Assembly (NCBI GenBank): GCA_964366355.1
Contig: CAYITO010000002.1
Coordinates: forward strand, 1-51,795
Direction of reading: 5' to 3'
DNA length: 51,795 nt
Origin: an uncultured archaeon
GTDB taxonomy: Archaea > Aenigmatarchaeota > Aenigmatarchaeia > CG10238-14 > SCSR01
Both the position numbers and the translations under genes were made by a program. Under the pieces are notes generated by a model. The model had not been told where the DNA came from. It saw nothing but the letters and a program-made list of their open reading frames with translations, and ran no database searches. Shown one piece after another: positions 3,108-46,245 of the stretch. The stretch's first letter is position 1; each line of letters opens with the position of its first letter.

Positions 3108-3159
3108 ATCTCTACTTTTGACAGTAGAATTTATAAATTGACTGAAAACAAAGTGGATT

Positions 3160-3411
3160 ATGATGTTCTCTCTAGATATATCAGAGGTTGCAGAGAGGAG
3201 ACTAAAGAAATTTGACAAAGAACTTCAAAGAAGGTTCTTCAAGAAAGTAGAAAAGTTGAAAATAAATCCATATCATGGCAAACCTCTACGATACGGCTTA
3301 TCTGGTACGTGGGAACTGTATTTTGAGAAAAGTTTTAGAATTTTGTATTCCATAGATAAGAACAGTAAGAAAGTAACTATTGAATCTATATGGCACAAAG
3401 ACGAATTTTAG
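3160..3411 (+). CDS. RelE/ParE-family type II toxin (mRNA interferase-like)
   Basis: 83 aa. GKPLRYGLSGTWELYFEKSFRILYSIDKNSKKVTIESIWHKDEF is the canonical RelE/ParE C-terminal core. Confidence 0.75.
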   Translation: MMFSLDISEVAERRLKKFDKELQRRFFKKVEKLKINPYHGKPLRYGLSGTWELYFEKSFRILYSIDKNSKKVTIESIWHKDEF

Positions 3412-3617
3412 ATATTAAGCTCTTTTTTGACATCATCTAAGGATCTGACTTTACCTTTTTTAATTGCTTCCTTGCCAGCCATAACCTCTTTCAGCAATTT
3501 TGGATTAGACAAAATCTCCAAGGTATCTGTTAAAGACTCCATCTCCCGTTTAGTTGCCATTCTGTTCTCTATTCTCCTCAATTCCTTGTAGATGTCCTCC
3601 AGCTTTATTTGGGCCAT
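3408..3617 (-). CDS. Small antitoxin-like protein, convergent with the RelE toxin and overlapping it by 4 bp
   Basis: 69 aa. Its C-terminus EILSNPKLLKEVMAGKEAIKKGKVRSLDDVKKEL resembles type II antitoxin C-termini and the antitoxin at 14212. A TATA-like tttataaa lies about 27 bp upstream on the minus strand. Confidence 0.5.
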   Translation of the reverse strand: MAQIKLEDIYKELRRIENRMATKREMESLTDTLEILSNPKLLKEVMAGKEAIKKGKVRSLDDVKKELNI

Positions 3618-3850
3618 AATTAAGAAATATGTATTGTTATTTATAAGTTTTATAAATTGAAGGAAGAAAAGAAAGGGGTTGTTGGGGAATGTTATACCTT
3701 AAGGGCTTTATTTTGAAAGTTTTTTGAATGAACTTCCGTTTTGCCCTTATCCCTTCCTTTCCAACCAAAAGACATTTCTATTCAGGATATAAAAACTTTT
3801 CCCAAAAAAAATATACAAAAATTTAAAAACCACTGCATTTATTTTGTTAA

Positions 3851-4651
3851 TCAAATCTTTTTCCTTACATAATCTACAATCGAATCAAAAATATACTTCC
3901 CGTCACCGTATTCTTCATTGCTGTTAGATGTCCAATCGGGATACTGAAACTTGAAAAAAGAATCTTCTGGATGGGGCATGAATGCCAAAACATTTCCCTC
4001 TGGATTGCATATACCAGCTATGTCATCAACAGAACCATTCGGATTAAACGGATACTCCCCATTGGCTAGTTCACCATCCTGTTTAGCATATCTCAAGACA
4101 ATTTGCTTGTTTTCATCCAATTTTTCCAGGACATCTTTTGGCGCAATAAAACGTCCCTCGCCATGCGCAGTTGGCGCCCTGATGAGCTTACCTATAGGCA
4201 CCGATTCTGTTAACTTGCAGTTGGAGCTTTGATTTTTCATTGTTATCCATCTGCATTCGAATCTTGCCGATGCGTTGTTTGCTAGGACTGCCTCCGGATA
4301 TTCCGACATGCCGTCTATTGCCGGCAGAAATCCCGCTTCAACTAGAATCTGGAAACCGTTGCACATGCCCAATAGCGCTCTACCGCTTCTTACAAACCTC
4401 TCCATCTCATCTCCAATTTTTGTCTTCAATTCCTTTCCGAAAATTGCACCTGAGCGAATGTAATCGCCATAGGAAAAACCGCCAGGTAGAACAACTAAAT
4501 GATAATCCAAAAGGTTTTGTTCTCTAGCAATCCTGTTCAAGTGGCATACATCAGCTTTAACGCCTAGATGATCCAGAACGTTCTTCACATCGCCATCTCT
4601 ATTGGTTCCAGCAACTCTAAGAATGCAAACACGTATATCGTCTGTATTCAT
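3851..4651 (-). CDS. purQ: Phosphoribosylformylglycinamidine synthase I, glutaminase subunit (PurQ)
   Basis: 266 aa class-I glutamine amidotransferase with PurQ-like sequence (LPGGFSYGDY ... GMCNGFQIL ... HPE). Confidence 0.85.
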   Translation of the reverse strand: MNTDDIRVCILRVAGTNRDGDVKNVLDHLGVKADVCHLNRIAREQNLLDYHLVVLPGGFSYGDYIRSGAIFGKELKTKIGDEMERFVRSGRALLGMCNGFQILVEAGFLPAIDGMSEYPEAVLANNASARFECRWITMKNQSSNCKLTESVPIGKLIRAPTAHGEGRFIAPKDVLEKLDENKQIVLRYAKQDGELANGEYPFNPNGSVDDIAGICNPEGNVLAFMPHPEDSFFKFQYPDWTSNSNEEYGDGKYIFDSIVDYVRKKI

Positions 4652-4714: not shown

Positions 4715-5551
4715 TCAAGAGAAATACTCTGGAATTCTAATGAAATCATTGGCAAGCTGTTTAAGCGTTTTCCTATTCTCCGGCAAAGAACCTGCAATCA
4801 AATCTCTTCCTAAAGATATGACGAGTTTTAATACACCTGGGTTTAGAAGTAGCTTATCTCTTTTGAGGAGTCTAGATTCAAGAAGCTTAAAAGTATCTCT
4901 CAAATATCCAAATAAGCTGTCGCGCAAGGCAGTGGAATCTGAAAATCTATTGGGATTTATAACATAGTTATCAGAAGACTCTTTAGTTAAGACTCCCTGT
5001 TCCACCAAACTGTCAAAAACAGGTCTATATTCTTCCCTGAGTATATCGGCAGTGGGTCCTGATCTCATTGCCCTAATCCACGTTGGAGTCATGTAATAAT
5101 CAAACACGGGCTTTTCCACCATGTGCGATGCTATAGGAAGCAATAACGGGACTGCTGCATCACTGGCGCGCGTATGATAAGTTGAAAGTGTTATTCTAGT
5201 AAGTTCTTCCTTCGTGCCGAAGGCTAATGCAGCGACGTATTCGTCTTCATCCAGAGGTTGTACTTTAAATGGTAATCCTGTGCGTCGTCTAGTTGAAAAA
5301 CTCTGGAGAGCTTCCCTTGGCATATAGGTTATGTTAACTTGCGTTGGGAAATCATCGGTTCTAACATACTTTAAACCCAAAGTTCCCCGAGTTACGATAA
5401 CCATATCGACATCGGAATCTGGGTTGTGATAACCGTTGAATCGTGAACCTTCGCCATATGCTGCAAAACTATCTGGAGTATATAGTTCACGTGCCAAAAT
5501 TTTCAAGTCGCCGATGTTTAGTCCGCTGCTGACATCCACCGCTCCTTTCAT
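4715..5551 (-). CDS. Pol-beta-superfamily nucleotidyltransferase (KNTase-like), function unknown
   Basis: Carries the nucleotidyltransferase signature GS-x10-DSDVDMVIV. 278 aa with a helical C-terminal half. Confidence 0.5.
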   Translation of the reverse strand: MKGAVDVSSGLNIGDLKILARELYTPDSFAAYGEGSRFNGYHNPDSDVDMVIVTRGTLGLKYVRTDDFPTQVNITYMPREALQSFSTRRRTGLPFKVQPLDEDEYVAALAFGTKEELTRITLSTYHTRASDAAVPLLLPIASHMVEKPVFDYYMTPTWIRAMRSGPTADILREEYRPVFDSLVEQGVLTKESSDNYVINPNRFSDSTALRDSLFGYLRDTFKLLESRLLKRDKLLLNPGVLKLVISLGRDLIAGSLPENRKTLKQLANDFIRIPEYFS

Positions 5552-5716
5552 ATATCATCACCCAAGAGTTTCTTGATAGCGTATTCTACAAAATGGGACC
5601 TGTTCCTGAAAGCAGAGCTTCCCAGTATCGAATCCATATCTTGTAAAGTTTTCTCGTCGAGCGATATGCTTACTTTTTGCTTCATTTTACCACTAAGTAG
5701 TAAGAATTACTACTAT

Positions 5717-5757
5717 TTAAAGATTTCTATATTTCACTATATAATAGTAGTAACTAA
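5717..5757. repeat. 41-bp direct repeat copy A (ttaaagatttctatatttcactatataatagtagtaactaa). It is preceded by an inverted arm, ttactactatt, able to pair with aatagtagtaa
   Basis: Exact 41/41 identity with 6490..6530, read directly from the sequence. Confidence 0.9.
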
Positions 5758-5776
5758 AGAATATCGGTATCATCAA

Positions 5777-6091
5777 TTAAGCTTCTGGAAAGAATTGCTT
5801 AATCTTTTGTAAAATTTCTTGGGAATATCTAGGATTCAAACCCACCTGAACACCGTAATGCGTAGGCTTAGTTAGAATGAGGCCTTCTTTAACAAGTTCT
5901 TTAACTAATTTATCGATTCTACGAAGCCCTTCTTTTCCCAAATCTCTATTGCTCCAACCTTTCTTCAAATTTTCAAATGAAGTATGAGCTCCTCCCCATT
6001 TACCATGTCTAAATAATTTCAAAAGAATTCTGGATACAATTTGTTCGTCTGTAAACATTAGTCCACTTATAATACCTTTGGAAGGTAACAT
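5777..6091 (-). CDS. Hypothetical small protein, probably winged-helix, inside the repeat-bracketed cassette
   Basis: 104 aa ORF. Its start is 15 bp from the start of the divergent gene at 6106. No confident family assignment. Confidence 0.5.
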   Translation of the reverse strand: MLPSKGIISGLMFTDEQIVSRILLKLFRHGKWGGAHTSFENLKKGWSNRDLGKEGLRRIDKLVKELVKEGLILTKPTHYGVQVGLNPRYSQEILQKIKQFFPEA

Positions 6092-6105
6092 TTATATACC
6101 TTTAA

Positions 6106-6459
6106 ATGCTACACTATTCTATGGAAGATAAGACTCTGTTGATCGAAGCTTTAGGAGATAGTCCAACATTGCGCATAATAGATTTTTTTCTAGATAACCG
6201 TAGTGACTATTCCAAAAAGGAAATTATAGAGGCGACGGGTATGTCGAAAACCACTTTCTATAAAATTTGGGGCGCATTGAAGGAATTTTCGGTAGTGAAA
6301 TCCACAAGGAAATATGGAAAAGCACAATTGTTTTCCTTGGATGAAAGTAATGATGTAGTTAAGAAACTAATGGCTTTAGAATTTGCGCTCGGGAAACAGG
6401 CGATGGAAAAGGCAGTTGTAGAAAATAAGATCGCCATAGATGCTAAAAAGAAGCAGTAG
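6106..6459 (+). CDS. Archaeal winged helix-turn-helix transcriptional regulator
   Basis: 117 aa. LRIIDFFLDNRSDYSKKEIIEATGMSKTTFYKIWGALKEFSVV has a wHTH pattern. Confidence 0.6.
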   Translation: MLHYSMEDKTLLIEALGDSPTLRIIDFFLDNRSDYSKKEIIEATGMSKTTFYKIWGALKEFSVVKSTRKYGKAQLFSLDESNDVVKKLMALEFALGKQAMEKAVVENKIAIDAKKKQ

Positions 6460-6489
6460 AAGTGCAAGTGAAGAAATAATTTTCCTAGA

Positions 6490-6530
6490 TTAAAGATTTC
6501 TATATTTCACTATATAATAGTAGTAACTAA
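6490..6530. repeat. 41-bp direct repeat copy B
   Basis: Identical to 5717..5757. This copy lacks the upstream inverted arm. Confidence 0.9.
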
Positions 6531-6559
6531 TGATGGGGAAGGTCCCTAGAAGTACGAAA

Positions 6560-8449
6560 TCAAACAAGAAATGGCGGCAAATCAACTTTCGGTACTGCAA
6601 CAATGTATTCGTTGAATGCCAATATACCCTTATGCAGATTATCGCGCAAATATCCCCAACCATGTATGTAAACTGGATTAAATCCAGCAGGAGTTAAAAA
6701 ATAAATGTGTTCTATTCCTGCTTCTTCTAGTCGTTTATGGAATTCTTTTGTTTCCGTTTCAGACCAAATATCATTTATGCCTACATCTAGGTAAAGTGTC
6801 ATATGATTTATCTGCTCTTTAGGTGGTATTTTAACTTTATTAAAAATTACAAAATCGCCCTTTGTTGTAAAGGATATTGGATCATATAAAACATATCTTT
6901 GATAAAAACCACTATAACCTGCCAAAAACCCAAACAACTCAGGATGCCTAAATCCTATCCAAAAGGCGCCATGCCCACCAATAGAAAAACCCAAAATGCC
7001 CCGTGCTGATTTGTCTGCTATTGTTCTGTATGTGGAATCTATATATGGAATTAAATCCTTCACTATGTAGTCTTCATAATTGCCGCATGAACGGACTTCT
7101 GGATGTTTACTTACTGCAATGAAAGGATTGAACCCGCTACAACCATTTTCCAATCCACTGTCATCTATGTCGGGCATTACGAATATTATTTCTTCAAGAC
7201 CTTCTTTTGTAAGCTTATCCAAAGTTTTATCTATGTCCGCTTTTTTAAGCCAGGCATTATGGTCTTCTGCTGCTCCATGCATGAGATATAAAACTGGATA
7301 GTTTTTTGAACTAGAATAATAACTAGGTGGGAGGTATATGAGGTATTTTCTCTCCTTCTTCAAGGCTGGGCTATAAAAGCTCATCTCTGCAAAAGGTTGG
7401 CAATCCCCTTGCCCAATAGCGCACCAAGAACAAGTTCTACATGCCCAGTCAGAGGATGCAGACTTTATGGGTTTATAACTTCCATCAGAACATTTGTATA
7501 CACCTTGGTATGCTCCGCCACAACCAAGCCCCTGTTGCTGTTCTATTGTACCTTGATCATATTCCCCACATCTAACTCCTATGTATTCGTCACAAGTTAT
7601 TGGCTGAGATTCTATTGGTGATTCACTTCCCTGTGATTGACTTTTCCCAATAAGTGTAGGGGCACAAACACTCTGATAATCAAAATCTTGAGGCGGCTGT
7701 AGAAAGAAATTACAGCAATCACCATAACCTTCACATAAATTATCGCACCAGCATTCTTTACCATCACCGATACCAAATGATTTGCCACACTTATCTTTAG
7801 TACAGATAAGTCCAGCAGATTGTGGAATTCCTGATGATGTAGTAATCGGGGTCGGCGCAGATGATGGTTGCCCTCCGCAAAGCTGCTGATAATCAGAACA
7901 GCAATCTTTGTTACCAGTACAAATTGTATCACAGTAGCACGGCGGTGATGAGCCTAGTACTGGTTTATTATCTTTATTGCAATAGTTTTTACCGTCATCT
8001 GGATCAATATTTGCGCAACCACCAGAAGATTGAGGTGTTGGTTGTGGTGTGGGAGAAGGTGCAGCACCTTTGCAAACACTTTGATAACCTTGAGAGCCTG
8101 TGCAGCAATCACCATAACCTTCACATAAATTATCGCACCAGCATGGCTGAGAAGTAGAGGATACGCCTTCTCCACCGCATTTATTTTGGCAACTGCCTTC
8201 GTATGATGCAGATGGTATCGAAGTAGTGCTTACACACTGTCCATTGCTGCATGTAGTTCCTGAAGGGCATTTGATAAAATTCCAATCCTTGAAGCCATCG
8301 TTATTGATGTCTTTACATTCCCAAAGGAAATCAGTGCCTTGGCATACGGATGCCGTACATGCATCTTGTTGTGCCGTAACTATTAAATTAGATAATAGGA
8401 ATAACAAAGATCCTGTGACTGCAATAAAAAAGAAATATGAAAGTTTCAT
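6560..8449 (-). CDS. Secreted esterase (Esterase-D / putative-esterase fold, GFSIGGHG nucleophile elbow) with an N-terminal signal peptide and three somatomedin-B-like Cys-rich modules
   Basis: Signal peptide MKLSYFFFIAVTGSLLFLLS. The Cys-rich modules are ...CWCDNLCEGYGDCCTGSQGYQSVC, ...CYCDTICTGNKDCCSDYQQLC and ...CWCDNLCEGYGDCC...DYQSVC. The C-terminal half has a G-x-S-x-G esterase motif and a conserved His. Confidence 0.7.
   Translation of the reverse strand: MKLSYFFFIAVTGSLLFLLSNLIVTAQQDACTASVCQGTDFLWECKDINNDGFKDWNFIKCPSGTTCSNGQCVSTTSIPSASYEGSCQNKCGGEGVSSTSQPCWCDNLCEGYGDCCTGSQGYQSVCKGAAPSPTPQPTPQSSGGCANIDPDDGKNYCNKDNKPVLGSSPPCYCDTICTGNKDCCSDYQQLCGGQPSSAPTPITTSSGIPQSAGLICTKDKCGKSFGIGDGKECWCDNLCEGYGDCCNFFLQPPQDFDYQSVCAPTLIGKSQSQGSESPIESQPITCDEYIGVRCGEYDQGTIEQQQGLGCGGAYQGVYKCSDGSYKPIKSASSDWACRTCSWCAIGQGDCQPFAEMSFYSPALKKERKYLIYLPPSYYSSSKNYPVLYLMHGAAEDHNAWLKKADIDKTLDKLTKEGLEEIIFVMPDIDDSGLENGCSGFNPFIAVSKHPEVRSCGNYEDYIVKDLIPYIDSTYRTIADKSARGILGFSIGGHGAFWIGFRHPELFGFLAGYSGFYQRYVLYDPISFTTKGDFVIFNKVKIPPKEQINHMTLYLDVGINDIWSETETKEFHKRLEEAGIEHIYFLTPAGFNPVYIHGWGYLRDNLHKGILAFNEYIVAVPKVDLPPFLV
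7713..7754. repeat. Intragenic 42-nt exact duplication (copy 1) within the SMB-like modules
   Basis: cagcaatcaccataaccttcacataaattatcgcaccagcat is identical to 8103..8144. The offset is 390 nt, which is in frame. Confidence 0.9.
8103..8144. repeat. Intragenic 42-nt exact duplication (copy 2)
   Basis: Identical to 7713..7754. Confidence 0.9.
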
Positions 8450-8489: not shown

Positions 8490-10859
8490 TTAACTTAAAG
8501 TTTTCTTCCAAGAATTTCTTAAAGAATTTGCATCTGTGGCAATTATTTTATTGCCATTTAATCCATATACCTCGAAATTATTATTTTCAAGTACTTTTCC
8601 AATTTTTGCATGTGATATCTCTTTTGTCAAATCTTCAAACCTTTCTCTATCAAATTCGTTTACCTCAACTAAAAACCTGCTATTGGATTCTGAAAATAAT
8701 ACAAAATCATCCCTACCAATATTTTCAATTGGAACTTTACTCAAATCCACCTCTACACCATACCTACTGCTAAAAGCCATTTCAGCCAATGCTGCAGCCA
8801 ACCCTCCTTCAGACATATCATGACAAGCTTTCACATAACCAGCATCTATCGCAGCGGTAACTGCATCAAATGTTTTCTTCGCTTCCTCAGCGTTAACTTT
8901 CGGAACAGAATTTCCCAGATGCCCGTTTAACTTATAGTACTCACTACCGCCTAACTCAGGATAAGTCTTACCAACTATGTATAGCAAATTCCCAGGTTTC
9001 TTCAAATCTACTGATACAGCCTTTCTAACATCAGGAATTATGCCTAATGCTGTTATCAATAAAGATGGTGTGACAGCTCCTAAAGGCGATTCATTGTATA
9101 AACTGTCTTTACCAGAAATGAAAGGTGTTTGGCAGACTTTTGCTATGTCGTAACAAGCTTTAGCTGCTCTAACCAACCCACCTAACCTATCTGACTTCTC
9201 AGGATTACCCCAACAGAAATTATCCAATAATGCAATTCTCCTACCGCCTACAGCTACGTTATTTCTTATAGCTTCGTCTATAGCAGACGCTGCCATCCAG
9301 TAAGGATCGATCTTGCCGTAGTTAGGATTCATTCCAGATGATATGACTATTCCCTGCCAACTGTTAGCTAATGGTTTTAACACTGCGGCATCATTTGGGC
9401 CTGAAAATTCTCCATGCAATGGTTTCAATACAGTGTTGCCCTTTACTTCATGATCGTAAGTTCTTATAACAGATTCCTTGCTGGCGATGTTTGGTTGAGC
9501 CAATAGTTTCAAAACAATTTCTGTCAGGTCTTTTGGCATGTCAAATTTTGGTTCGGGATGTTCGGGCTTTTTCCATACAGCTTTTTTTGATGCAATAATT
9601 GGGTTGAAAAGAAATTCCAAATTCATCTCCCCGACCGAAGTTCCTTTGTAATGTATATTGGCCGTCTTGTCTTCAATGAATTTTCCAATCGGAGTCGCCT
9701 CGACATCCTCATCTGCGAATATGCCTAAAACTTTTTGCAAATTCTCATCAGGAACGACCAAAAGCATTCTTTCCTGCGATTCAGAGACAAAAATTTCCCA
9801 AGGATCCAACTTCTCCCTGAGCGGAACGGAATCCAGAAAAACACTCACTCCGACACCGGCTGAATAGGCCAATTCACAGGAACCGCATGATATGCCTCCC
9901 CCGCCAACATCGGTTATTGCCGACGCCAGTTTCCTGTCTCTGATCTCCAAAATTGCCCTTTTCAGTTTTTCCTGCTGTATAGGGTCTGCAATCTGGACTG
10001 CCGGCCTGAAAACTTCGGATTTCTTTGCCAGTTCAACAGACGCAAAAGTAACGCCGTGAATTCCGTCTCGTCCGGTTTTGTTTCCAGCAATCACCAGAAC
10101 ATCGCCAACTTTAATATCCTTTACAAACTTGTCTTTCGGGAGCAAGCCGACACATCCACAATAAACCAAAGGATTGCCCACGTATCCTTCGTCAAAATAA
10201 ATGGCGCCATTAACAGTCGGTATTCCCATTTTGTTTCCATAAGTGCCAACACCTGCGGTCACGCCATTGAAAATAAACTTCGGGTGCTTCATCTCTGCAG
10301 GCAGTTTTTTGTAATCATAATCCAGCGGACCGAAGCAAAGGACATCTGTATTAGCAATTGGCTCTGCCCAAACACCCAGTATATCCCTGATAACACCGCC
10401 GACGCCTGTGGCTGCCCCGCCGAATGGCTCGATTGCTGATGGATGGTTGTGCGTCTCGACTTTTATTGCTACAGCCTGCCCGTCGGCAAAATCAACTATG
10501 CCTGCATTGTCCTTGAATGTCAAGAACAACCACGGTGATTTCAATTCTTCGGTCACTTTGGCTATGTAAGTCTTGAATAGATTTTTTATTGTTCCATCCT
10601 CAGCAATGATTTCTCCTTTGAAGGTTTTGTGGGAGCAATGCTCGCTCCATGTCTGCGCTATGCATTCAATTTCAACATCGGTGGGGTTTCGATTTAGTTT
10701 TTTGTAGTGTTGCTGGATGAATTTCATTTCTTCAAGACTGAATGCTAGTTGATTTTCTTGGCTTAATTGAATTAACGCTTGATCGTCAGCATCCATAATG
10801 TTGATTTCGCATAGTAGAAATGGAAGTTGTTTTTTAATAAATAGTGCATTCATATCCAA
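8490..10859 (-). CDS. purL: Phosphoribosylformylglycinamidine synthase II (PurL)
   Basis: 789 aa with the PurL signature TWSEHCSHKTF and duplicated AIRS/AIRS-C domains. The start may be the internal Met at about 10796. Confidence 0.9.
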   Translation of the reverse strand: MDMNALFIKKQLPFLLCEINIMDADDQALIQLSQENQLAFSLEEMKFIQQHYKKLNRNPTDVEIECIAQTWSEHCSHKTFKGEIIAEDGTIKNLFKTYIAKVTEELKSPWLFLTFKDNAGIVDFADGQAVAIKVETHNHPSAIEPFGGAATGVGGVIRDILGVWAEPIANTDVLCFGPLDYDYKKLPAEMKHPKFIFNGVTAGVGTYGNKMGIPTVNGAIYFDEGYVGNPLVYCGCVGLLPKDKFVKDIKVGDVLVIAGNKTGRDGIHGVTFASVELAKKSEVFRPAVQIADPIQQEKLKRAILEIRDRKLASAITDVGGGGISCGSCELAYSAGVGVSVFLDSVPLREKLDPWEIFVSESQERMLLVVPDENLQKVLGIFADEDVEATPIGKFIEDKTANIHYKGTSVGEMNLEFLFNPIIASKKAVWKKPEHPEPKFDMPKDLTEIVLKLLAQPNIASKESVIRTYDHEVKGNTVLKPLHGEFSGPNDAAVLKPLANSWQGIVISSGMNPNYGKIDPYWMAASAIDEAIRNNVAVGGRRIALLDNFCWGNPEKSDRLGGLVRAAKACYDIAKVCQTPFISGKDSLYNESPLGAVTPSLLITALGIIPDVRKAVSVDLKKPGNLLYIVGKTYPELGGSEYYKLNGHLGNSVPKVNAEEAKKTFDAVTAAIDAGYVKACHDMSEGGLAAALAEMAFSSRYGVEVDLSKVPIENIGRDDFVLFSESNSRFLVEVNEFDRERFEDLTKEISHAKIGKVLENNNFEVYGLNGNKIIATDANSLRNSWKKTLS

Positions 10860-10963
10860 ACAATGTTTTTAGAAATTTATATAATTGAAAATTTTGTAAT
10901 AACACGAAATATTGACTTAAATTAATGAAAGATTTAAATAGTATCAAATGGTAATATGTACAT

Positions 10964-11665: not shown

Positions 11666-11706
11666 CCAAAGGATGCATTTGGAAATTTAAATAACTTTAA
11701 TCTATT
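11666..11706. repeat. About 41-bp motif downstream of VapC-1 (ccaaaggatgcatttggaaatttaaataactttaatctatt), copy 1
   Basis: About 90% identical to 12455..12496. It contains the short inverted repeat ccaaa / tttgg. Confidence 0.8.
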
Positions 11707-12011: not shown

Positions 12012-12442
12012 TGCAAAAGGCTTACATCGACACGAATATTTTTGATTATGTTGTATTAAGACATGAAATTTATGGCAAAGCTTGTAAAGAAATTTTGGAT
12101 GACATTGGAAGTGAATTGAATGCGTATTGCTCGTTTCTTGTACCTATAGAGATACTAGGCTCTCTGTCGGAAATTGAGATTGATATGGCATTTAAAGCAC
12201 TATCAACGTTTTTTGCATTTAAATTAACTCTTATAGAAATAGGTTCGAATCTTCTTTTAGAATCTAGTAAAATTATGAAAAGTACAAAGATAAATGGATA
12301 TGATGCTGTACATGTCGCAGCTATGAAAAGAGAAAATATCCATACTATAATCACTGAAAATTATAAAGATTTCAAAAAAATTCCTAGAATAAATATTGTT
12401 AGGCCTTTAAACTATAAAAAATGGAAAGAAAATTTAAAATAG
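12008..12442 (+). CDS. vapC: PIN-domain toxin VapC (second copy)
   Basis: YIDTNIF ... GYDAVHVAAMKRENIHTIITENYKDF. Confidence 0.8.
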   Translation: MMQKAYIDTNIFDYVVLRHEIYGKACKEILDDIGSELNAYCSFLVPIEILGSLSEIEIDMAFKALSTFFAFKLTLIEIGSNLLLESSKIMKSTKINGYDAVHVAAMKRENIHTIITENYKDFKKIPRINIVRPLNYKKWKENLK

Positions 12443-12454
12443 AGTATTCATATC

Positions 12455-12496
12455 CAAAAGGATGCGTTTGGAAATTTAAATACGTTTAATTTATTC
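12455..12496. repeat. About 41-bp motif downstream of VapC-2, copy 2
   Basis: ccaaaaggatgcgtttggaaatttaaatacgtttaatttatt, with 1 indel and 4 substitutions relative to copy 1. Confidence 0.8.
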
Positions 12497-18986: not shown

Positions 18987-19050
18987 ACTTCATCTTCCGC
19001 ATTTTTTAATTACTTAATAGCTATAAATCTTTCTTATTTGTAAGATTATT

Positions 19051-19090
19051 ATGCAGCTGATAAGAAGGGGTAAAGTTAAAGACGTATATT
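19051..19090. repeat. Decayed duplicate of the purC 5' end (atgcagctgataagaaggggtaaagttaaagacgtatatt), encoding MQLIRRGKVKDVYSLVPS*
   Basis: 35/40 identical to 19456..19495, the true purC start, and in the same orientation. Confidence 0.8.
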
Positions 19091-19455
19091 CTCTGGTCCC
19101 CAGCTAGGAGAAGGTGGCAATGGTGATCGAGCAAAATCATAACCTCCTCTCTCTCTAATTTTTCATGTATTTCTCTACCCCTTTCTTGACCAACCGTTTC
19201 AATATCACTTAATTATGTAGATTTTACAGATACAGAAAAAAGCAGCGCGGCAAAAAGATTAGCACTTCCTGAACCCAAAGACATTTGATATAAGAAATTC
19301 TATAGAGAGGTTCTTTAGAACCATGAAAGAAACAACCAAATCATTCTACAATAACTTTCCTTACAAGGATATTATTGCAGGCATTAAAGTTGACAGTATG
19401 TTATGGACTTAAGAAACAAGATTTATAACTAAATACTAAATTATTGCAGGGTTAT

Positions 19456-20286
19456 ATGCAATTAATAAGAAAAGGCAAAGTTAAAGACGTATATGATTAC
19501 GGCAATAGTAAATTACTTTTTGATTTTTCCAACCGTGTTTCTGCATTTGATGTTATACTGCCTTCGGAAATACCTAAGAAAGGCGAAGTCTTATGTAGGC
19601 TTGGTGAATTTTTCTTCAAAACACTTGATGTGCCAAACCATATGCTGGAAGTCATCAGACCGAACAAAATGATTGTGAAAAAACTTGATTTGATACCTAT
19701 AGAATGTGTTGTTAGAGGTTATTTGTACGGAAGTTTATATGAAAGAGTAAAAAACAGTGAAGTAAAACTTGATGGTGAGCCGATTTTAGCCAGCAAATTG
19801 CCAGAGCCTATGTTCGATCCTACTACAAAATTTGAGGAAAAGGATAGACCAATAACAAAAGATGAAATTACAAATGATAAGAAGTGGTTGACAGAAGAAG
19901 AATACGAATGGTTGAAGAACAAAAGTATCGAGCTATACAAGAAAATTTCACAAATTGCTGATAAGGCTGGATTTATCGTCGCCGATATCAAGTTTGAATT
20001 TGGCAAAGATGGAGAGGGCAATATACTTTTAGCTGATTCTATCGGACCTGACGAGTTTAGAATGTGGGATAAGAATAAATATGAAGTTGGTAAATCACAG
20101 GAGGCTTTTGACAAGCAGTTGGTTAGGGATTGGTTGATTGTTGCTGGCTATAAAAACGAGTTGGATAAAGCTAGAAAAGAAGGAAAAGGTATACCTAAAC
20201 CCCCTCTATTATCTGACGATATTGTCAGGAAAGTTACTGAAACTTACATTTATGTTTTTGAGAAGCTAACTGGGGAGAAATTTTAG
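19456..20286 (+). CDS. purC: SAICAR synthetase (PurC)
   Basis: MQLIRKGKVKDVYDY ... archaeal/bacterial PurC. The ORF-track start at 19444 is probably 4 codons too long. Confidence 0.85.
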   Translation: MQLIRKGKVKDVYDYGNSKLLFDFSNRVSAFDVILPSEIPKKGEVLCRLGEFFFKTLDVPNHMLEVIRPNKMIVKKLDLIPIECVVRGYLYGSLYERVKNSEVKLDGEPILASKLPEPMFDPTTKFEEKDRPITKDEITNDKKWLTEEEYEWLKNKSIELYKKISQIADKAGFIVADIKFEFGKDGEGNILLADSIGPDEFRMWDKNKYEVGKSQEAFDKQLVRDWLIVAGYKNELDKARKEGKGIPKPPLLSDDIVRKVTETYIYVFEKLTGEKF

Positions 20287-29733: not shown

Positions 29734-30849
29734 ATGCGCATCGCAATAACGAAACCGCATATATCTACTAGAAATAAGATATTGATTCTGCTGATTTTAG
29801 GCATTATTGTTAGATTGTTATTTTGGTCTTCCAAATTGTCATTTGTTGACAACGAAAGCATTTCGCATTTAAGATATGCTGAAAGTATAATGAATTTGGA
29901 GATTCCTAAAACCCAGTGGATAGGCACAAAAGACGGTTTTTATTCTTATGAATCTTACCCACCTAGCCTATATTTAATTACAGCTTCTTTTGGAATTTTT
30001 GCATCTAATATTTTTTCATTCACTCTCTTGGCAAAAATCGTTAGCCTAATTTTTTCTTTATTGACTCTTGCAGTTAGTGCAATCTATTCGCTTAAAATGA
30101 AAAATCATTATGTAATAGCATTAGTTGCCCTGATTCCCTTAGAGTGGTTCGAATCCTTACCGAGGTTTAATAACGACATTGTAGTGGCGTTTTTCGCTTC
30201 TTTGGTATTCCTGGTTGCATTAAAGGAGATTAATGCCAAAAATATGATTATTCTCGCTTTGTTTACTTCGCTGGCTCTACTTTCAAAATTTACTGCCATA
30301 TTGCTATTGATACCCATGCTACTCTACATTTGGTTTAATTCAAAAAATCTCAAATTCATTTTAATTTTCCTGGCCATCACGGCTTTTATTGCAGGTCCAT
30401 GGTATTTGAGAAATCTATTGCTTTATGGAGATCCCTTATTTGTTCCTTACACAGAAGCCGAACAGGCGGGCCCTAAAAGTCTTGCCTTCTTTATGGAGGG
30501 CTATGTATTCGGATTCTTCCCTTTTTGCACACTTGGTTACATTGAGGACATAGTAATTTTAGGCGTATCTGTTTTTCTCATATATACCATAATGAGAGGC
30601 TTGGAGGAAAGGTTTAGGCATATGGCATCTTCCAAGATTGTTGATCCGGCCGCCTTGTTTCTCCCATTGATATTTGTTGTTTGGATAGCCGTTAAATATG
30701 TATTTCCAAGTGGATCTGCTAAATATCTCCTTCCAGCTCTATTGCCTCTGGCGGTTATTTCTAGTTCCGGAACTAAAAACAAGTATATCGTTTGGTTTGT
30801 TAGCATTAGTTTTGCCTATCTGTTTATCAAAGTTTTATTAACATGCTGA
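29734..30849 (+). CDS. Polytopic membrane protein, probably a GT-C-type glycosyltransferase (ArnT/PMT-like), paralog 1
   Basis: 371 aa with about 10 predicted TM helices. It sits in a glycosylation gene context. The fold assignment is inference. Confidence 0.45.
   Translation: MRIAITKPHISTRNKILILLILGIIVRLLFWSSKLSFVDNESISHLRYAESIMNLEIPKTQWIGTKDGFYSYESYPPSLYLITASFGIFASNIFSFTLLAKIVSLIFSLLTLAVSAIYSLKMKNHYVIALVALIPLEWFESLPRFNNDIVVAFFASLVFLVALKEINAKNMIILALFTSLALLSKFTAILLLIPMLLYIWFNSKNLKFILIFLAITAFIAGPWYLRNLLLYGDPLFVPYTEAEQAGPKSLAFFMEGYVFGFFPFCTLGYIEDIVILGVSVFLIYTIMRGLEERFRHMASSKIVDPAALFLPLIFVVWIAVKYVFPSGSAKYLLPALLPLAVISSSGTKNKYIVWFVSISFAYLFIKVLLTC
29864..30260. repeat. About 400-bp near-identical segment (copy 1) shared by the two membrane-protein paralogs
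   Basis: agcatttcgcatttaagatatgctgaaagtataatgaatttggag ... ggagattaat is matched almost base-for-base at 31584..31980. The first clear mismatches fall near 30233 and 30237. Confidence 0.85.
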
Positions 30850-31416: not shown

Positions 31417-31583
31417 TATTTCTTTAGTTGACTATCATTTACTTAATACGTTATAATTTAATTAAAAGGTGATACGGGATAAAAGGTTTAATATCACTTC
31501 CTATAAAGCATAAGATAATTCTCTTATTAGGTATAGGTATTATACTTCAAATTGTATATTGGAGTACTCGAATAAATATTTTT

Positions 31584-31980
31584 GACCACGATAGCATTTC
31601 GCATTTAAGATATGCTGAAAGTATAATGAATTTGGAGATTCCTAAAACCCAGTGGATAGGCACAAAAGACGGTTTTTATTCTTATGAATCTTACCCACCT
31701 AGCCTATATTTAATTACAGCTTCTTTTGGAATTTTTGCATCTAATATTTTTTCATTCACTCTCTTGGCAAAAATCGTTAGCCTAATTTTTTCTTTATTGA
31801 CTCTTGCAGTTAGTGCAATCTATTCGCTTAAAATGAAAAATCATTATGTAATAGCATTAGTTGCCCTGATTCCCTTAGAGTGGTTCGAATCCTTACCGAG
31901 GTTTAATAACGACATTGTAGTGGCGTTTTTCGCTTCTTTGGTATTCCTGGTTGCATTAAAGGAGATTAATACCAAAAATG
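31584..31980. repeat. About 400-bp near-identical segment (copy 2)
   Basis: See 29864..30260. The 3' parts of the two genes are much more diverged, which indicates gene conversion or a recent partial duplication. Confidence 0.85.
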
Positions 31981-32597
31981 TGATTATTCTCGCTTTGTTT
32001 ACATCTTTTGCGCTGTTATCAAATTATAATGCATTGGTGCTCGCCTTAGTTACTTTATTTTACATTAAAAACAATTCCAAGAACAGAAAATTAGTTATAA
32101 TGTTTATAGCTATAGTAGCTTTGCTTGCAGGTCCATGGTATTTGAGAAATCTATTGCTTTATGGAGATCCCTTATATGTGCCTTCGCTGATTCATACTGA
32201 AGATTATAAGCCTGCCAGAGGAGCAGGAATATTTTTTGAAAATTATTTTTTAGGGTTCTTTCCTAGTTGTATTGTTGGGCTTCACTTAAATTACATAACC
32301 CTGTTTTTAACAATTCTTATTATATTTTTTACAATGAGAAATTTAGAGGACAGATTTAAACACATGTTATCTCTCAAGATTGTTGATCCGATTGCGTTAT
32401 TTCTTCCACTTTTGTTGATTAGCTGGATTTTATTTGGTTATACTTATTCTGATTTATTTTCGCCACGTTATTTAATTTCAGGCATTTTGCCGTTATCTGT
32501 TGTCGCTTCTTCTAGCATTAAATCTAAATACGGATTTTGGATCATTTACATTGGATTTATGTATTTCTTTTTTCATAATTTCATAAATTGTTTGTAG
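31626..32597 (+). CDS. Polytopic membrane protein paralog 2. No canonical start codon lies upstream, although about 50 homologous in-frame codons are present
   Basis: The in-frame upstream translation YGIKGLISLPIKHKIILLLGIGIILQIVYWSTRINIFDHDSISHLRYAESI aligns to paralog 1 residues 10-50. It contains no ATG/GTG/TTG back to the stop at 31470-31472. Confidence 0.55.
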   Translation: MNLEIPKTQWIGTKDGFYSYESYPPSLYLITASFGIFASNIFSFTLLAKIVSLIFSLLTLAVSAIYSLKMKNHYVIALVALIPLEWFESLPRFNNDIVVAFFASLVFLVALKEINTKNVIILALFTSFALLSNYNALVLALVTLFYIKNNSKNRKLVIMFIAIVALLAGPWYLRNLLLYGDPLYVPSLIHTEDYKPARGAGIFFENYFLGFFPSCIVGLHLNYITLFLTILIIFFTMRNLEDRFKHMLSLKIVDPIALFLPLLLISWILFGYTYSDLFSPRYLISGILPLSVVASSSIKSKYGFWIIYIGFMYFFFHNFINCL

Positions 32598-32606
32598 TGT
32601 ATGTGC

Positions 32607-32636
32607 ATGGTAAACGTAATCAAAGCCGACGGCAAG
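32607..32636. repeat. Decayed duplicate of the 5' end of the ATP-cone gene (atggtaaacgtaatcaaagccgacggcaag, giving MVNVIKADGKL*)
   Basis: 27/30 identical, apart from a 3-nt indel, to 33180..33212 (atggtggacgtaataaaagccgacggcagcaag). Confidence 0.8.
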
Positions 32637-32669: not shown

Positions 32670-32912
32670 ATGACCATGAAATCTGCAACAAACGAGGAAA
32701 GACTGTTAAGGCACTTGGAACCGAAGATAAGGAGAATAGTGCATGAAACTCTAAAGGAGGCCTTACCCAACGAAATATATTATCCTCCAGAATATAAGCT
32801 GAAAAAGAGCTTTGTAAAAAGGGTGTTGGAAGCTCAAAGAAGAGTTAAAGAAGGCAATGGAAAGACCTACACTTACGAAGAATTTAAAAGGAAGTTTCTA
32901 AAAGGTTTGTAG
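32670..32912 (+). CDS. Antitoxin partner of the RelE-like toxin (family unassigned)
   Basis: 80 aa, directly upstream of and abutting the toxin gene. Confidence 0.45.
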   Translation: MTMKSATNEERLLRHLEPKIRRIVHETLKEALPNEIYYPPEYKLKKSFVKRVLEAQRRVKEGNGKTYTYEEFKRKFLKGL

Positions 32913-33179
32913 ATGGAAAATCCTTATGATATTAAGATTGAATCCAAACTTGAAAAGTTGCTTAACAAGATAAAAAAGAAGGATAGGATTTTATACGAAA
33001 GGATTATTAAACAGATGCTAAAATTGGCTGAAACTCCTAAGCAAGGAAAACCATTGAGAAACATTCTAAAAGGTAAATGGAGAGTGCAAATTGGTCCTTT
33101 CGTATTGGTTTATGCAATTGACGAGAATCAACATAAAGTAGTATTTTTAGAGTTTGAACACCATGACAGGGTGTATTGA
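32913..33179 (+). CDS. RelE/ParE-family type II toxin
   Basis: GKPLRNILKGKWRVQIGPFVLVYAIDENQHKVVFLEFEHHDRVY. Its stop TGA is immediately followed by the ATG of the next gene. Confidence 0.75.
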   Translation: MENPYDIKIESKLEKLLNKIKKKDRILYERIIKQMLKLAETPKQGKPLRNILKGKWRVQIGPFVLVYAIDENQHKVVFLEFEHHDRVY

Positions 33180-33992
33180 ATGGTGGACGTAATAAAAGCC
33201 GACGGCAGCAAGCAGCCTTTCGAAAAATATAAAGTGGTTAGAACCTGCCTTAGAATGAAGGTAGATAGGGATGCTGCAGAGGGGATAGCAAACAGTATAG
33301 AAAAGAAGCTGTATGAAGGAATTGCAACCAAGCAAATCCTAAAGATGATCTTCAGTTACATAAGTGTATACAAGCCCCAAATGAAGCACCAAATAGATTT
33401 GCGGGAGGCTGTATGCCTATTAAGACCGAAACCTGATTTTGAACATTTCGTTGGGATGCTTCTAAAGGCTGAAGGATATGAAGTCAAAACAAACAAAATC
33501 GTCGCAGGAAGATGTGTAGAACATGAAATTGACGCTATTGCTAACAAGAGGAATGAAGCTTTGTATGTGGAAGCAAAACATCACTACAAGCCGCACTCTT
33601 ATACAGGCCTTGATGTTTTCCTTGAAACTCAGGCTACTTTTGAGGACTTGATAGAAGGCAAGAACAATTTTTCAAAGGCAGTTGTAATAACAAATGCCAA
33701 ACTGTCTGAACATGCCAAAAGATATGCGGAATGCAAGAATATTTCGGCCATAGGCTGGAGATATCCGAATGAAAATGGATTGGAATCTATGATAGAAAAG
33801 AATAGATTGTATCCGGTCACATTACTCAAAGGTTTGGATGTTAACATGCAAGCAAGACTGGCAGATAAGGGGATTATTTTGTTGAGCCAGCTTGCTGAAT
33901 ATAATGCGGAAAAATTGAACAAGATGGCGAAGATTGGCAAATCTAAAGCTAATCAAATCTTAAGGAAAGCCCATGAAATTTTAGGAAGCTGA
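33180..33992 (+). CDS. ATP-cone domain fused to an Mrr-like (PD-(D/E)xK) restriction-endonuclease domain and a C-terminal helix-hairpin-helix
   Basis: N-terminus VIKADGSKQPFEKYKVVRTCLRMKVDRDAAEGIANSIEKKL is an ATP-cone. The middle, FEHFVGMLLKAEGYEV ... HEIDAIA ... YVEAKHH ... AVVITNAKLSEHAKRYAECKNISAIGW, is Mrr_cat-like. The C-terminus, LLKGLDVNMQARLADKGIILLSQLAEYNAEKLNKMAKIGKSKANQIL, is an HhH. Confidence 0.6.
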   Translation: MVDVIKADGSKQPFEKYKVVRTCLRMKVDRDAAEGIANSIEKKLYEGIATKQILKMIFSYISVYKPQMKHQIDLREAVCLLRPKPDFEHFVGMLLKAEGYEVKTNKIVAGRCVEHEIDAIANKRNEALYVEAKHHYKPHSYTGLDVFLETQATFEDLIEGKNNFSKAVVITNAKLSEHAKRYAECKNISAIGWRYPNENGLESMIEKNRLYPVTLLKGLDVNMQARLADKGIILLSQLAEYNAEKLNKMAKIGKSKANQILRKAHEILGS

Positions 33993-44115: not shown

Positions 44116-44213
44116 TGGGTCTGCCCGGATTCGAACCGGGGTTTACGCGATTTTGAAAGTTTCGTCAACGCGCCGTCCTTTGCGGATTTTTTAAACCGCT
44201 AGACTACAAACCC
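44116..44213 (-). tRNA. tRNA-Val (anticodon GAC) with a 12-nt intron at 37/38 and a possible second insertion in the D-loop
   Basis: Minus-strand sequence GGGTTTG TA GTCT [AGCGGTTTAAAAAATCCGCAAA] GGAC G GCGCG TTGACG[AAACTTTCAAAA]T CGCGT AAAC CCCGG TTCGAAT CCGGG CAGACCC A. The acceptor and T arms are perfect. U33 and purine-37 are present. Confidence 0.65.
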
Positions 44214-46148: not shown

Positions 46149-46245
46149 CGCCTAGGGCGAGATTTGAACTCGCAAGGTCTTTCGACCGCTGGTTACTCGC
46201 CAAAGGATAGCAAACCAGTGCCATACCAGGTTAGGCGACCTAGGC
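46149..46245 (-). tRNA. tRNA-Ser (anticodon GCU), class II with a long variable arm and a 13-nt intron at 37/38
   Basis: Minus strand: GCCTAGG TC GCC TAACCTGGTAT GGC A CTGGT TTGCTA[TCCTTTGGCGAGT]A ACCAG CGGTCGAAAGACCTT GCGAG TTCAAAT CTCGC CCTAGGC G. All stems are perfect and the total is 97 nt. Confidence 0.85.

Follow-up and report, generated by a model that had tools for sequence, protein, structure and literature searches.

The repeat and its surroundings

The DNA analysed here is a contig of 51,795 nucleotides (nt) from an uncultured archaeon of the Aenigmatarchaeota (GenBank assembly GCA_964366355.1, contig CAYITO010000002.1, positions 1 to 51,795, hereafter the window), in which we focus on a perfect 41-bp direct repeat that brackets two small divergent genes. 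The 41-mer, TTAAAGATTTCTATATTTCACTATATAATAGTAGTAACTAA, occurs twice in the whole window, at 5717-5757 (copy 1) and 6490-6530 (copy 2). Both copies are read here on the minus strand, as are their neighbours: to the left of copy 1, a conserved leader of 31 nt (5686-5716), the gene of a 45-residue ribbon-helix-helix (RHH) protein of CopG/NikR/MazE-like type (5548-5685) and that of a putative nucleotidyltransferase of 278 residues (4715-5551); to the right of copy 2, a spacer (6531-6559) and the gene of a secreted esterase (6560-8449).

An earlier note on this DNA, made from the letters alone, had reported the identical 41-mer at both positions and held it to be beyond chance. An exact search confirms the first point, and the second is borne out by a search at up to three mismatches, which finds no third match in the window (0 expected, with no match in 100 shuffles). 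The 773 bp that the note gave as the size of the cassette is correct as the start-to-start period of the repeat, but the DNA between the copies measures 732 bp (5758-6489). Similarly, its placement of the cassette between the nucleotidyltransferase and esterase genes holds on the esterase side, whereas copy 1 adjoins the RHH gene, behind which the nucleotidyltransferase gene lies. The repeat can be extended to 44 nt with one mismatch (5758 versus 6531). In contig L001 from the same sample (L numbers designate the contigs and loci used for comparison), a T stands at positions 60-62 in place of the A at window position 5758, which makes the repeat 44/44; this version may show how far the duplication originally reached, in which case TCA is a 3-nt microhomology at the junction, or may be a sequencing error at low coverage.

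The duplication is real, since the replicate assemblies agree, one contig spans both copies and the repeat is shorter than a sequencing read. The sample, Hain_H51_01um (0.1-µm-filtered groundwater from Hainich well H51), is represented by replicates R1, R2 and R3, which were assembled separately, and all four junctions were recovered in these independent assemblies; moreover, contig L089 (3969 nt) carries both copies at 99.97% identity to the window. An assembly artefact is thus ruled out. Another contig, L002, of 2x coverage, is identical to the window over 1624 nt and wholly unlike it in its left 33 nt (positions 1-33, corresponding to window 5736-5768); the divergence begins 11 nt to the right of copy 1, and the 33 nt match nothing in the window. 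This left end may stem from a chimera at the end of the contig or from a rare variant with a rearrangement.

On the minus strand, the 41-mer forms the upstream two-thirds of a conserved element of about 72 nt, named P41, which appears to be a promoter with a short leader. Indeed, copy 1 and the next 31 nt run directly into the RHH gene, as TTAGTTACTACTATTATATAGTGAAATATAGAAATCTTTAA followed by ATAGTAGTAATTCTTACTACTTAGTGGTAAA and the ATG. Copy 1 contains the TATA-like boxes TTATATAG and AAATATAG and one TTACTACT motif, and the 72-nt element as a whole contains TTACTACT three times, once inverted, and ATATAG twice at 11-nt spacing. The leader includes an 8-bp stem (AGTAGTAA/TTACTACT), its fold not being significant (z = -1.2), and a Shine-Dalgarno-like AGTGGT/GTGAT stands about 5 nt upstream of the RHH start codon. 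The orthologous single copies of the 41-mer in L003, L090, L094 and L095 are 90-97% identical to that of the window. By the identity of the purQ protein to that of the window, L003 stands at 87% and L004 and L090, two contigs of one species, at 82%; L094, L095 and L096 belong to one further species. P41 and its leader are 85-97% identical between species, and the coding DNA of RHH and purQ just 72-83%; non-coding DNA whose conservation exceeds that of the neighbouring genes is subject to selection. Rfam returns no match to the element, even with E values as high as 1 allowed, so a known RNA family or riboswitch is rejected. The invariant core of P41, TATATAGTGAAATATAGAAATCTTTAAATA, is found in addition ahead of unrelated genes on three short contigs from metagenomes, L075 from the same sample among them. 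The core was found at other loci in L075, L072, L076 and L097; rather than being unique to this site, the element thus belongs to a small family of lineage-specific promoters. A second copy is absent at every other element-carrying locus examined. The earlier note had described the repeat as lying in AT-rich intergenic DNA: intergenic it is, but not anonymous, being the conserved putative promoter and probable operator of the RHH operon next to it.

The note had also drawn attention to hairpin arms present at the first copy and missing at the second, and on both counts it was right. The inverted repeat pairs 5707-5717 with 5743-5753 (11 nt, 100% complementary, 25 nt apart), and copy 2 has no pairing partner because the left arm sits in the leader, outside the duplication. 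A functional hairpin is rejected: the pairing is broken without compensation in L003, L094 and L090, and fold energies are not clearly better than those of shuffled sequences (z = -2.0 in the window and -0.6 in L094). The simplest account of the hairpin is that it arises incidentally from the repetition of the TTACTACT motif.

The cassette between the two copies (5758-6489) holds two divergent genes and a putative shared promoter region. The gene on the plus strand (6121-6459) encodes a protein of 112 residues (117 from the longest-ORF start at 6106, ORF being open reading frame), ArsR/SmtB/MarR-like with a long C-terminal helix; that on the minus strand (5777-6058) encodes a protein of 93 residues (104 from the longest-ORF start at 6091). 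Homologues number 233 for the first (55-71% identity) and 72 for the second (mostly of 92-96 residues); for both genes together they span 55-74% identity and include genomes labelled Aenigmarchaeota, Nitrosopumilus and Nitrosotalea. Hits to Pfam at the sequence level are below curated cutoffs. The AlphaFold model of the 112-residue protein has a predicted local distance difference test (pLDDT) of 90.6 and, in Foldseek, matches CzrA, SmtB and MarR-family structures (E about 2e-4, probability 1.0); that of the 93-residue protein (pLDDT 93.6) matches MarR-like proteins, SSV1 F-93 and PadR (E 0.009-0.04, TM 0.55-0.65). Both models are winged helix-turn-helix folds, in agreement with the note's view of two small divergent winged-helix genes. 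Its spacing of 15 bp between the starts applies to the longest ORFs only (6091 and 6106): homologue lengths and gene calls put the real starts at 6058 and 6121, with a gap of 62 bp (6059-6120). This gap would be the shared divergent promoter region; it contains TTTATATA and TATATAAA boxes and is strongly conserved relative to L077.

The same divergent pair is found elsewhere in other archaea, with a gap of about 60 bp and in stable chromosomal settings: with topoisomerase IB on one side and an M24 peptidase on the other in L078 and L086, and beside DUF357 in L077. The L077 pair is 84% identical to the cassette at the DNA level, the similarity stopping at the stop codon of the 93-residue gene. 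No flanking repeats surround the pair in L078 or L077, and L082 has just a weak tRNA-like repeat of 35 nt (71%); flanking repeats are therefore not a general trait of the pair. In L082, a distant genome, tRNA-like 3'-end sequences (GGTTCAAATCCCACC...) lie at 4612-4646, 5369-5394 and 5754-5789, on both sides of the pair and its neighbour, which may be due to chance or to tRNA-linked integration there. A viral or plasmid origin was considered and rejected, as P41 has no match in viral contigs and the 112-residue protein just two distant matches there (47-48% identity). At the cassette itself there are no terminal inverted repeats, the longest exact run at the insert ends being 5 nt, and no inverted repeat joining both ends was found.

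Empty sites in related genomes and the insertion event

Related genomes contain the site with a single repeat copy, as the earlier note had predicted. In L094 and L095, a spacer of about 25 nt separates the esterase stop codon from a single copy of the element, to which the leader and the RHH gene are joined; in L090, the esterase is followed by a single copy and then by the operon. With 773 bp taken out, the window aligns colinearly with these three loci throughout, on both flanks, and the cassette is absent from the same site in L003, L090/L004, L094 and L095. Furthermore, the spacer beside copy 2 (TTCTAGGGACC..CATCA), which extends from the esterase stop to the promoter element, matches the empty-site spacer of L094 and L095 (TTCTAGG..CATCA), and the leader beside copy 1 matches the empty-site leader. 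Copy 2 thus keeps the ancestral upstream flank and copy 1 the downstream flank, from which it follows that the 732 bp are an insert that duplicated its 41-bp target. On the upstream side, the duplication ends where the conserved element ends; on the downstream side, its limit separates the promoter part from the leader and lies in a box divided between TTTAA and ATA, and the similarity of copy 2 to the relatives ends at the 3' end of the 41-mer.

This alignment supports the note's reading of an inserted regulatory cassette bounded by a target-site duplication. The att-like boundary that it had offered as an alternative is not upheld, there being no integrase on the 51.8-kb contig and no second copy at the other loci that carry the element. 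We consider it likely, with good confidence, that a two-gene cassette inserted here and duplicated 41 bp (possibly 44) of P41, no recombinase being encoded by the element. Parsimony over three lineages favours a gain at this site over repeated loss elsewhere.

Several points weigh against this reading. A precise deletion between the 41-bp repeats could have removed the cassette from the relatives, a scenario that still needs an earlier insertion to create the structure. One contig of this genome is the basis of the analysis, and the donor locus of the cassette would lie outside it; in this population, examined as assembled contigs, neither an empty-site form nor a circular junction was seen; likewise, a recombinase encoded elsewhere in the genome could have acted in trans. 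The presence of the P41 core in L075, L072, L076 and L097 makes recombination between paralogous promoter copies conceivable. Junction microhomology amounts to 3 nt at most (TCA), and is seen only in the low-coverage variant L001, which gives little support to a template switch. Finally, P41 is a putative promoter and operator by its conservation, its position and its TATA-like boxes.

Insertion with long target duplication of restriction-modification genes was reportedly described by Nobusato et al. in 2000 (Gene 259:99). Such insertions have been described by genome comparison for units of these genes devoid of mobility genes. Their duplications measure 46 bp in H. influenzae and 47 bp in T. 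thermophilus and reach about 400 bp in Helicobacter; they frequently cover the start or stop of translation, so that the target gene survives, and double-strand breakage is suspected, with no mechanism established (PMC2853133; PMC3874152). Furuta, Abe and Kobayashi (2010, Nucleic Acids Research (NAR) 38:2428, PMC2853133) defined the class by a single copy at the empty site, a duplication of more than 30 bp, and an insert of less than 20 kb without integrase, transposase or prophage link; no archaeal case passed the published screen (PMC2853133).

The locus described here has a single copy between esterase and operon in L094, L095 and L090, a duplication above 30 bp (41/41, or 44/44 in L001) and an insert of 732 bp, with no integrase, transposase, Cas1 or other mobility gene detected with Pfam among the roughly 50 proteins of this contig. 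Repeats over a gene start, with the neighbouring genes left intact, are also common in the class. It differs in its cargo, two winged-helix proteins in place of restriction-modification genes, which is a difference of cargo and not of the architecture of the event. It differs as well in its archaeal host, in a target that is a conserved putative promoter and probable operator, in the regulator pair here and the toxin-antitoxin pairs at other sites, and in the occurrence of at least four events within 52 kb. The feature is thus an archaeal example of a known, mechanistically unexplained insertion mode, with unusual cargo and target.

Other insertion classes fit less closely. Elements with tyrosine integrases share with the locus direct repeats of about 40-50 bp (attL/attR) and one copy at the empty site, but here both an integrase and a tRNA target are missing, no other locus with the element has a second copy, and the 732 bp are ordinary chromosomal regulator genes; no tyrosine or serine recombinase of the kind expected for a site-specific element is encoded in the cassette or on the contig. 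Insertion sequences (IS), miniature inverted-repeat transposable elements (MITEs) and casposons likewise duplicate their target on both sides. The duplications of IS and MITEs are short and fixed, under 10 bp as a rule, and those of casposons measure 14-15 bp. For IS1630 they reach 19-26 bp (PMC2853133). The locus departs from all of these in its 41 bp, in lengths that vary by event (28-41 nt), in its lack of terminal inverted repeats and in the absence of transposase and Cas1.

Similar duplications along the contig and the RHH operon

The pattern recurs on the contig. A scan for direct repeats (spacing 150-2500 nt, match +1, mismatch -2) found eight in the window with a score of at least 18, and none in 25 dinucleotide-preserving shuffles. 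Half of them have another explanation, three lying in a 1.7-kb tandem gene duplication and one inside the esterase gene. In each of the other four, a duplicated promoter or 5' gene end flanks a small cassette. Beside the P41 promoter (5717-5757 and 6490-6530, 41/41, with the winged-helix pair between), these are the purL promoter (11668-11706 and 12457-12495, 35/39), with an AbrB-like gene and a PIN gene between; the first 13 codons of purC (19050-19089 and 19455-19494, 34/40), with a 365-nt insert between; and the start of an ATP-cone/Mrr-like gene (32607-32634 and 33180-33207, 25/28), with a RelE/ParE-like pair between (32670-32912 and 32913-33179). Over the wider 32604-32634 and 33177-33207, the last repeat reads 27/31.

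The purL promoter is present three times, at 10858-10896, 11668-11706 and 12457-12495. The copy at the true purL start comes with the first seven purL codons (10839-10896), and these codons are copied as well, at 10839-10860 and 12437-12458. The three copies bracket two unrelated PIN-toxin pairs, a 93-residue antitoxin with a 135-residue PIN protein and a 78-residue AbrB-like antitoxin with a 144-residue PIN protein; in the relative L003, purL directly follows the rhomboid gene, without cassettes. The 365-nt insert at purC has no convincing ORF and no Rfam match, and may be a decayed cassette. No transposon-like ends or termini common to the five inserts were found.

A weak repeat of 22 nt (3130-3151 and 3649-3670, 82% identical) covers the presumed purM promoter and flanks a ParE-toxin cassette (3160-3617) between purQ and purM. 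The two genes of this cassette are convergent with a 4-nt overlap; the arrangement is the same in L003, and in L090 and L004 purQ and purM are adjacent, without the cassette. This repeat and the 22-nt repeat of the purL start (10839 and 12437) are not significant alone, as scores of about 16 occur in 6 of the 25 shuffles, and as further events they are suggestive.

The repeat inside the esterase gene is a perfect one of 42 nt (7713-7754 and 8103-8144), with a diverged third copy at 7899-7940. It falls within the Somatomedin-B-like, Cys-rich repeats that the protein combines with its esterase domain (Pfam Esterase, E=1.2e-26; Somatomedin_B, E=4.7e-14). The tandem duplication has a period of 1736 bp (29846-30448 and 31582-32184; 543/603 identical, 99% over the first 300 nt) and includes the 5' portion of a gene for a PMT_2-like glycosyltransferase, with a methyltransferase gene between the copies. 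The contig further contains two tRNA genes of 97-98 nt (44116-44213 and 46149-46245), found by Rfam and missed by ARAGORN, which presumably contain introns of archaeal type and are the chief sign in this DNA of an archaeal origin. Its purine genes comprise two PurP genes, purM, purQ, purL, purE, purA, purC and purB, and so cover most of the purine pathway; PurP is typical of archaea.

The RHH protein of the operon downstream of P41 has 14 homologues, and both its weak NCBIfam RHH hits (E about 0.004) and the weak Pfam NTP_transf_2 hit of the nucleotidyltransferase (E=0.011) are below curated cutoffs. The RHH stop codon overlaps the nucleotidyltransferase start by 4 nt, an arrangement of translational coupling. 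In six contexts (L003, L090 and L094-L097), the RHH gene is always downstream of the element, a co-conservation that is suggestive of an RHH-regulated operon. The RHH protein is a candidate autoregulator, which would bind P41 as its probable operator.

The cargo of the operon varies by species. In the window, the nucleotidyltransferase stands alone beside RHH. L003 (4267-5865) has a 173-residue protein and a nucleoside-hydrolase-like protein, L090 (2597-5861) proteins of 243 and 305 residues, a nucleotidyltransferase and a DUF218 protein, and L095 (1499-4528) proteins of 181, 292 and 276 residues and a DUF218 protein. L097 (219-2944) offers a different context, with a more distant element followed by the RHH gene and an orphan gene of 838 codons. 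Cargo genes follow RHH and in two species also precede it, and membrane proteins are among them. Searches with Pfam and NCBIfam of the cargo behind P41 in other species returned nothing except the nucleoside-hydrolase-like protein of L003. Promoter, leader and RHH gene thus look like a small module with variable cargo. They resemble the autoregulated operons of RHH proteins of CopG/Arc/MetJ type, including type II toxin-antitoxin operons, in the small RHH gene coupled to variable cargo and in the promoter with repeated short motifs; unlike in those operons, the family assignment is weak and RHH is the second gene of the operon in some species.

Competing explanations, mechanism and significance

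The two copies could be attL and attR sites, a reading that we regard as improbable. It supposes that a small circular element with its own 41-mer integrated site-specifically by means of an integrase acting in trans, and that it can be excised again in the manner of an integron cassette or a satellite; the circular form would read ...TTTTCCTAGA, the 41-mer, AAGAATATCGG... at its junction. Perfect direct repeats of 41-44 bp do flank the insert, the empty sites have a single copy, and a size of 41-44 bp is typical of archaeal att cores; as the P41 core exists at several loci, the cassette could have acquired a copy. However, the integrase is missing from both cassette and contig, the other loci with the element are unoccupied, and the pair, stable on chromosomes of other archaea, is almost absent from viral contigs, where P41 has no match either. 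Moreover, the other duplications on the contig are unrelated in sequence and 28-40 nt long, so that one recombinase with one att site cannot account for them.

Equally improbable, in our estimate, is a homologous integration of Campbell type, in which a circularised fragment made up of the pair and some 41 bp of a P41-type promoter, derived from a locus where the two were neighbours, underwent a single crossover with the P41 of the chromosome. P41-type promoters exist at more than one locus in the lineage, including L075 of the same sample, and a single crossover gives exactly the order repeat, insert, repeat. Yet the paralogues differ just upstream (ATTGTAAC in L075, ATTAGTTAC here), while the window copies are identical up to the edge of conservation; a homology of 41 bp is very short for recombination of this type to be efficient; a separate pre-existing homology would be required for every other target duplicated on the contig; and the L077 pair has no P41 nearby on its visible side. 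Least probable of all is an adaptive promoter duplication, with copy 2 recruited to place the cassette under the control of the RHH operon (antisense to the 112-residue gene, sense to the 93-residue gene), for copy 2, which retains all conserved positions of the upstream promoter part and is oriented toward the cassette, lacks the conserved leader, has its TTTAAATA box cut between TTTAA and TCTA and is separated from the co-directional 93-residue gene by the whole antisense 112-residue gene, the boundaries fit a simple target duplication in the empty-site alignment, and the proposal describes a possible consequence, compatible with the insertion favoured here, and not an origin.

The insertion with target duplication started from an ancestral order of esterase, spacer, P41, leader and RHH. 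A 732-bp module with its own putative promoters entered at the boundary of P41 and leader and left 41 bp of target on both sides. It could have done so through repair of a staggered break, with long overhangs filled in around a captured fragment, or through a template switch in replication, in which a donor segment was copied and synthesis returned to the target about 40 nt behind the point where it had left; these are the two routes that we favour. The intergenic gaps of this genome are tens of bases only, and selection would retain only events that leave the promoter or gene start intact on both sides. Since the lengths vary, the targets are unrelated, no recombinase is found and the inserts share no ends, the observations argue against one enzyme working with a constant stagger or att site.

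Copy 1, joined to the leader, would be expected to keep driving the RHH and nucleotidyltransferase genes. Copy 2, which lacks the leader and a portion of one TATA-like box, faces the 3' end of the 112-residue gene; it may be silent, may give antisense transcription, or may provide the P41 regulator with a second binding site. The effect on the genome is modest, namely one extra, probably crippled promoter copy and a relocated regulator pair.

A bolder proposal, which we hold to be unlikely, is that the lineage has a dedicated mechanism that places promoter-bearing two-gene cassettes (toxin-antitoxin and regulator pairs) at promoters and gene starts through staggered cuts about 30-60 nt apart. 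If true, a stagger of about 30-60 nt would correspond roughly to the footprint of a bound transcription-initiation or repressor complex, which would explain the long duplications, and the 41-mer would be what such a complex protected on the promoter of the RHH operon.

The insertion mode is rare and poorly understood, and since 2000 has been known essentially for bacterial restriction-modification genes. Our work extends the pattern to an archaeon and to regulator and toxin-antitoxin pairs, with at least four events on one 52-kb contig, and this recurrence is a more interesting result than the single event. For the 41-mer event, the empty sites in the relatives fix the junctions to the base, and, in a population with many such events, the junctions taken together could reveal the rules of the mechanism, namely the length of the stagger, the microhomology and the preferred targets. 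Furthermore, the strongly conserved promoter and leader, with their small RHH gene and variable cargo, provide a candidate regulatory module in a barely studied lineage.

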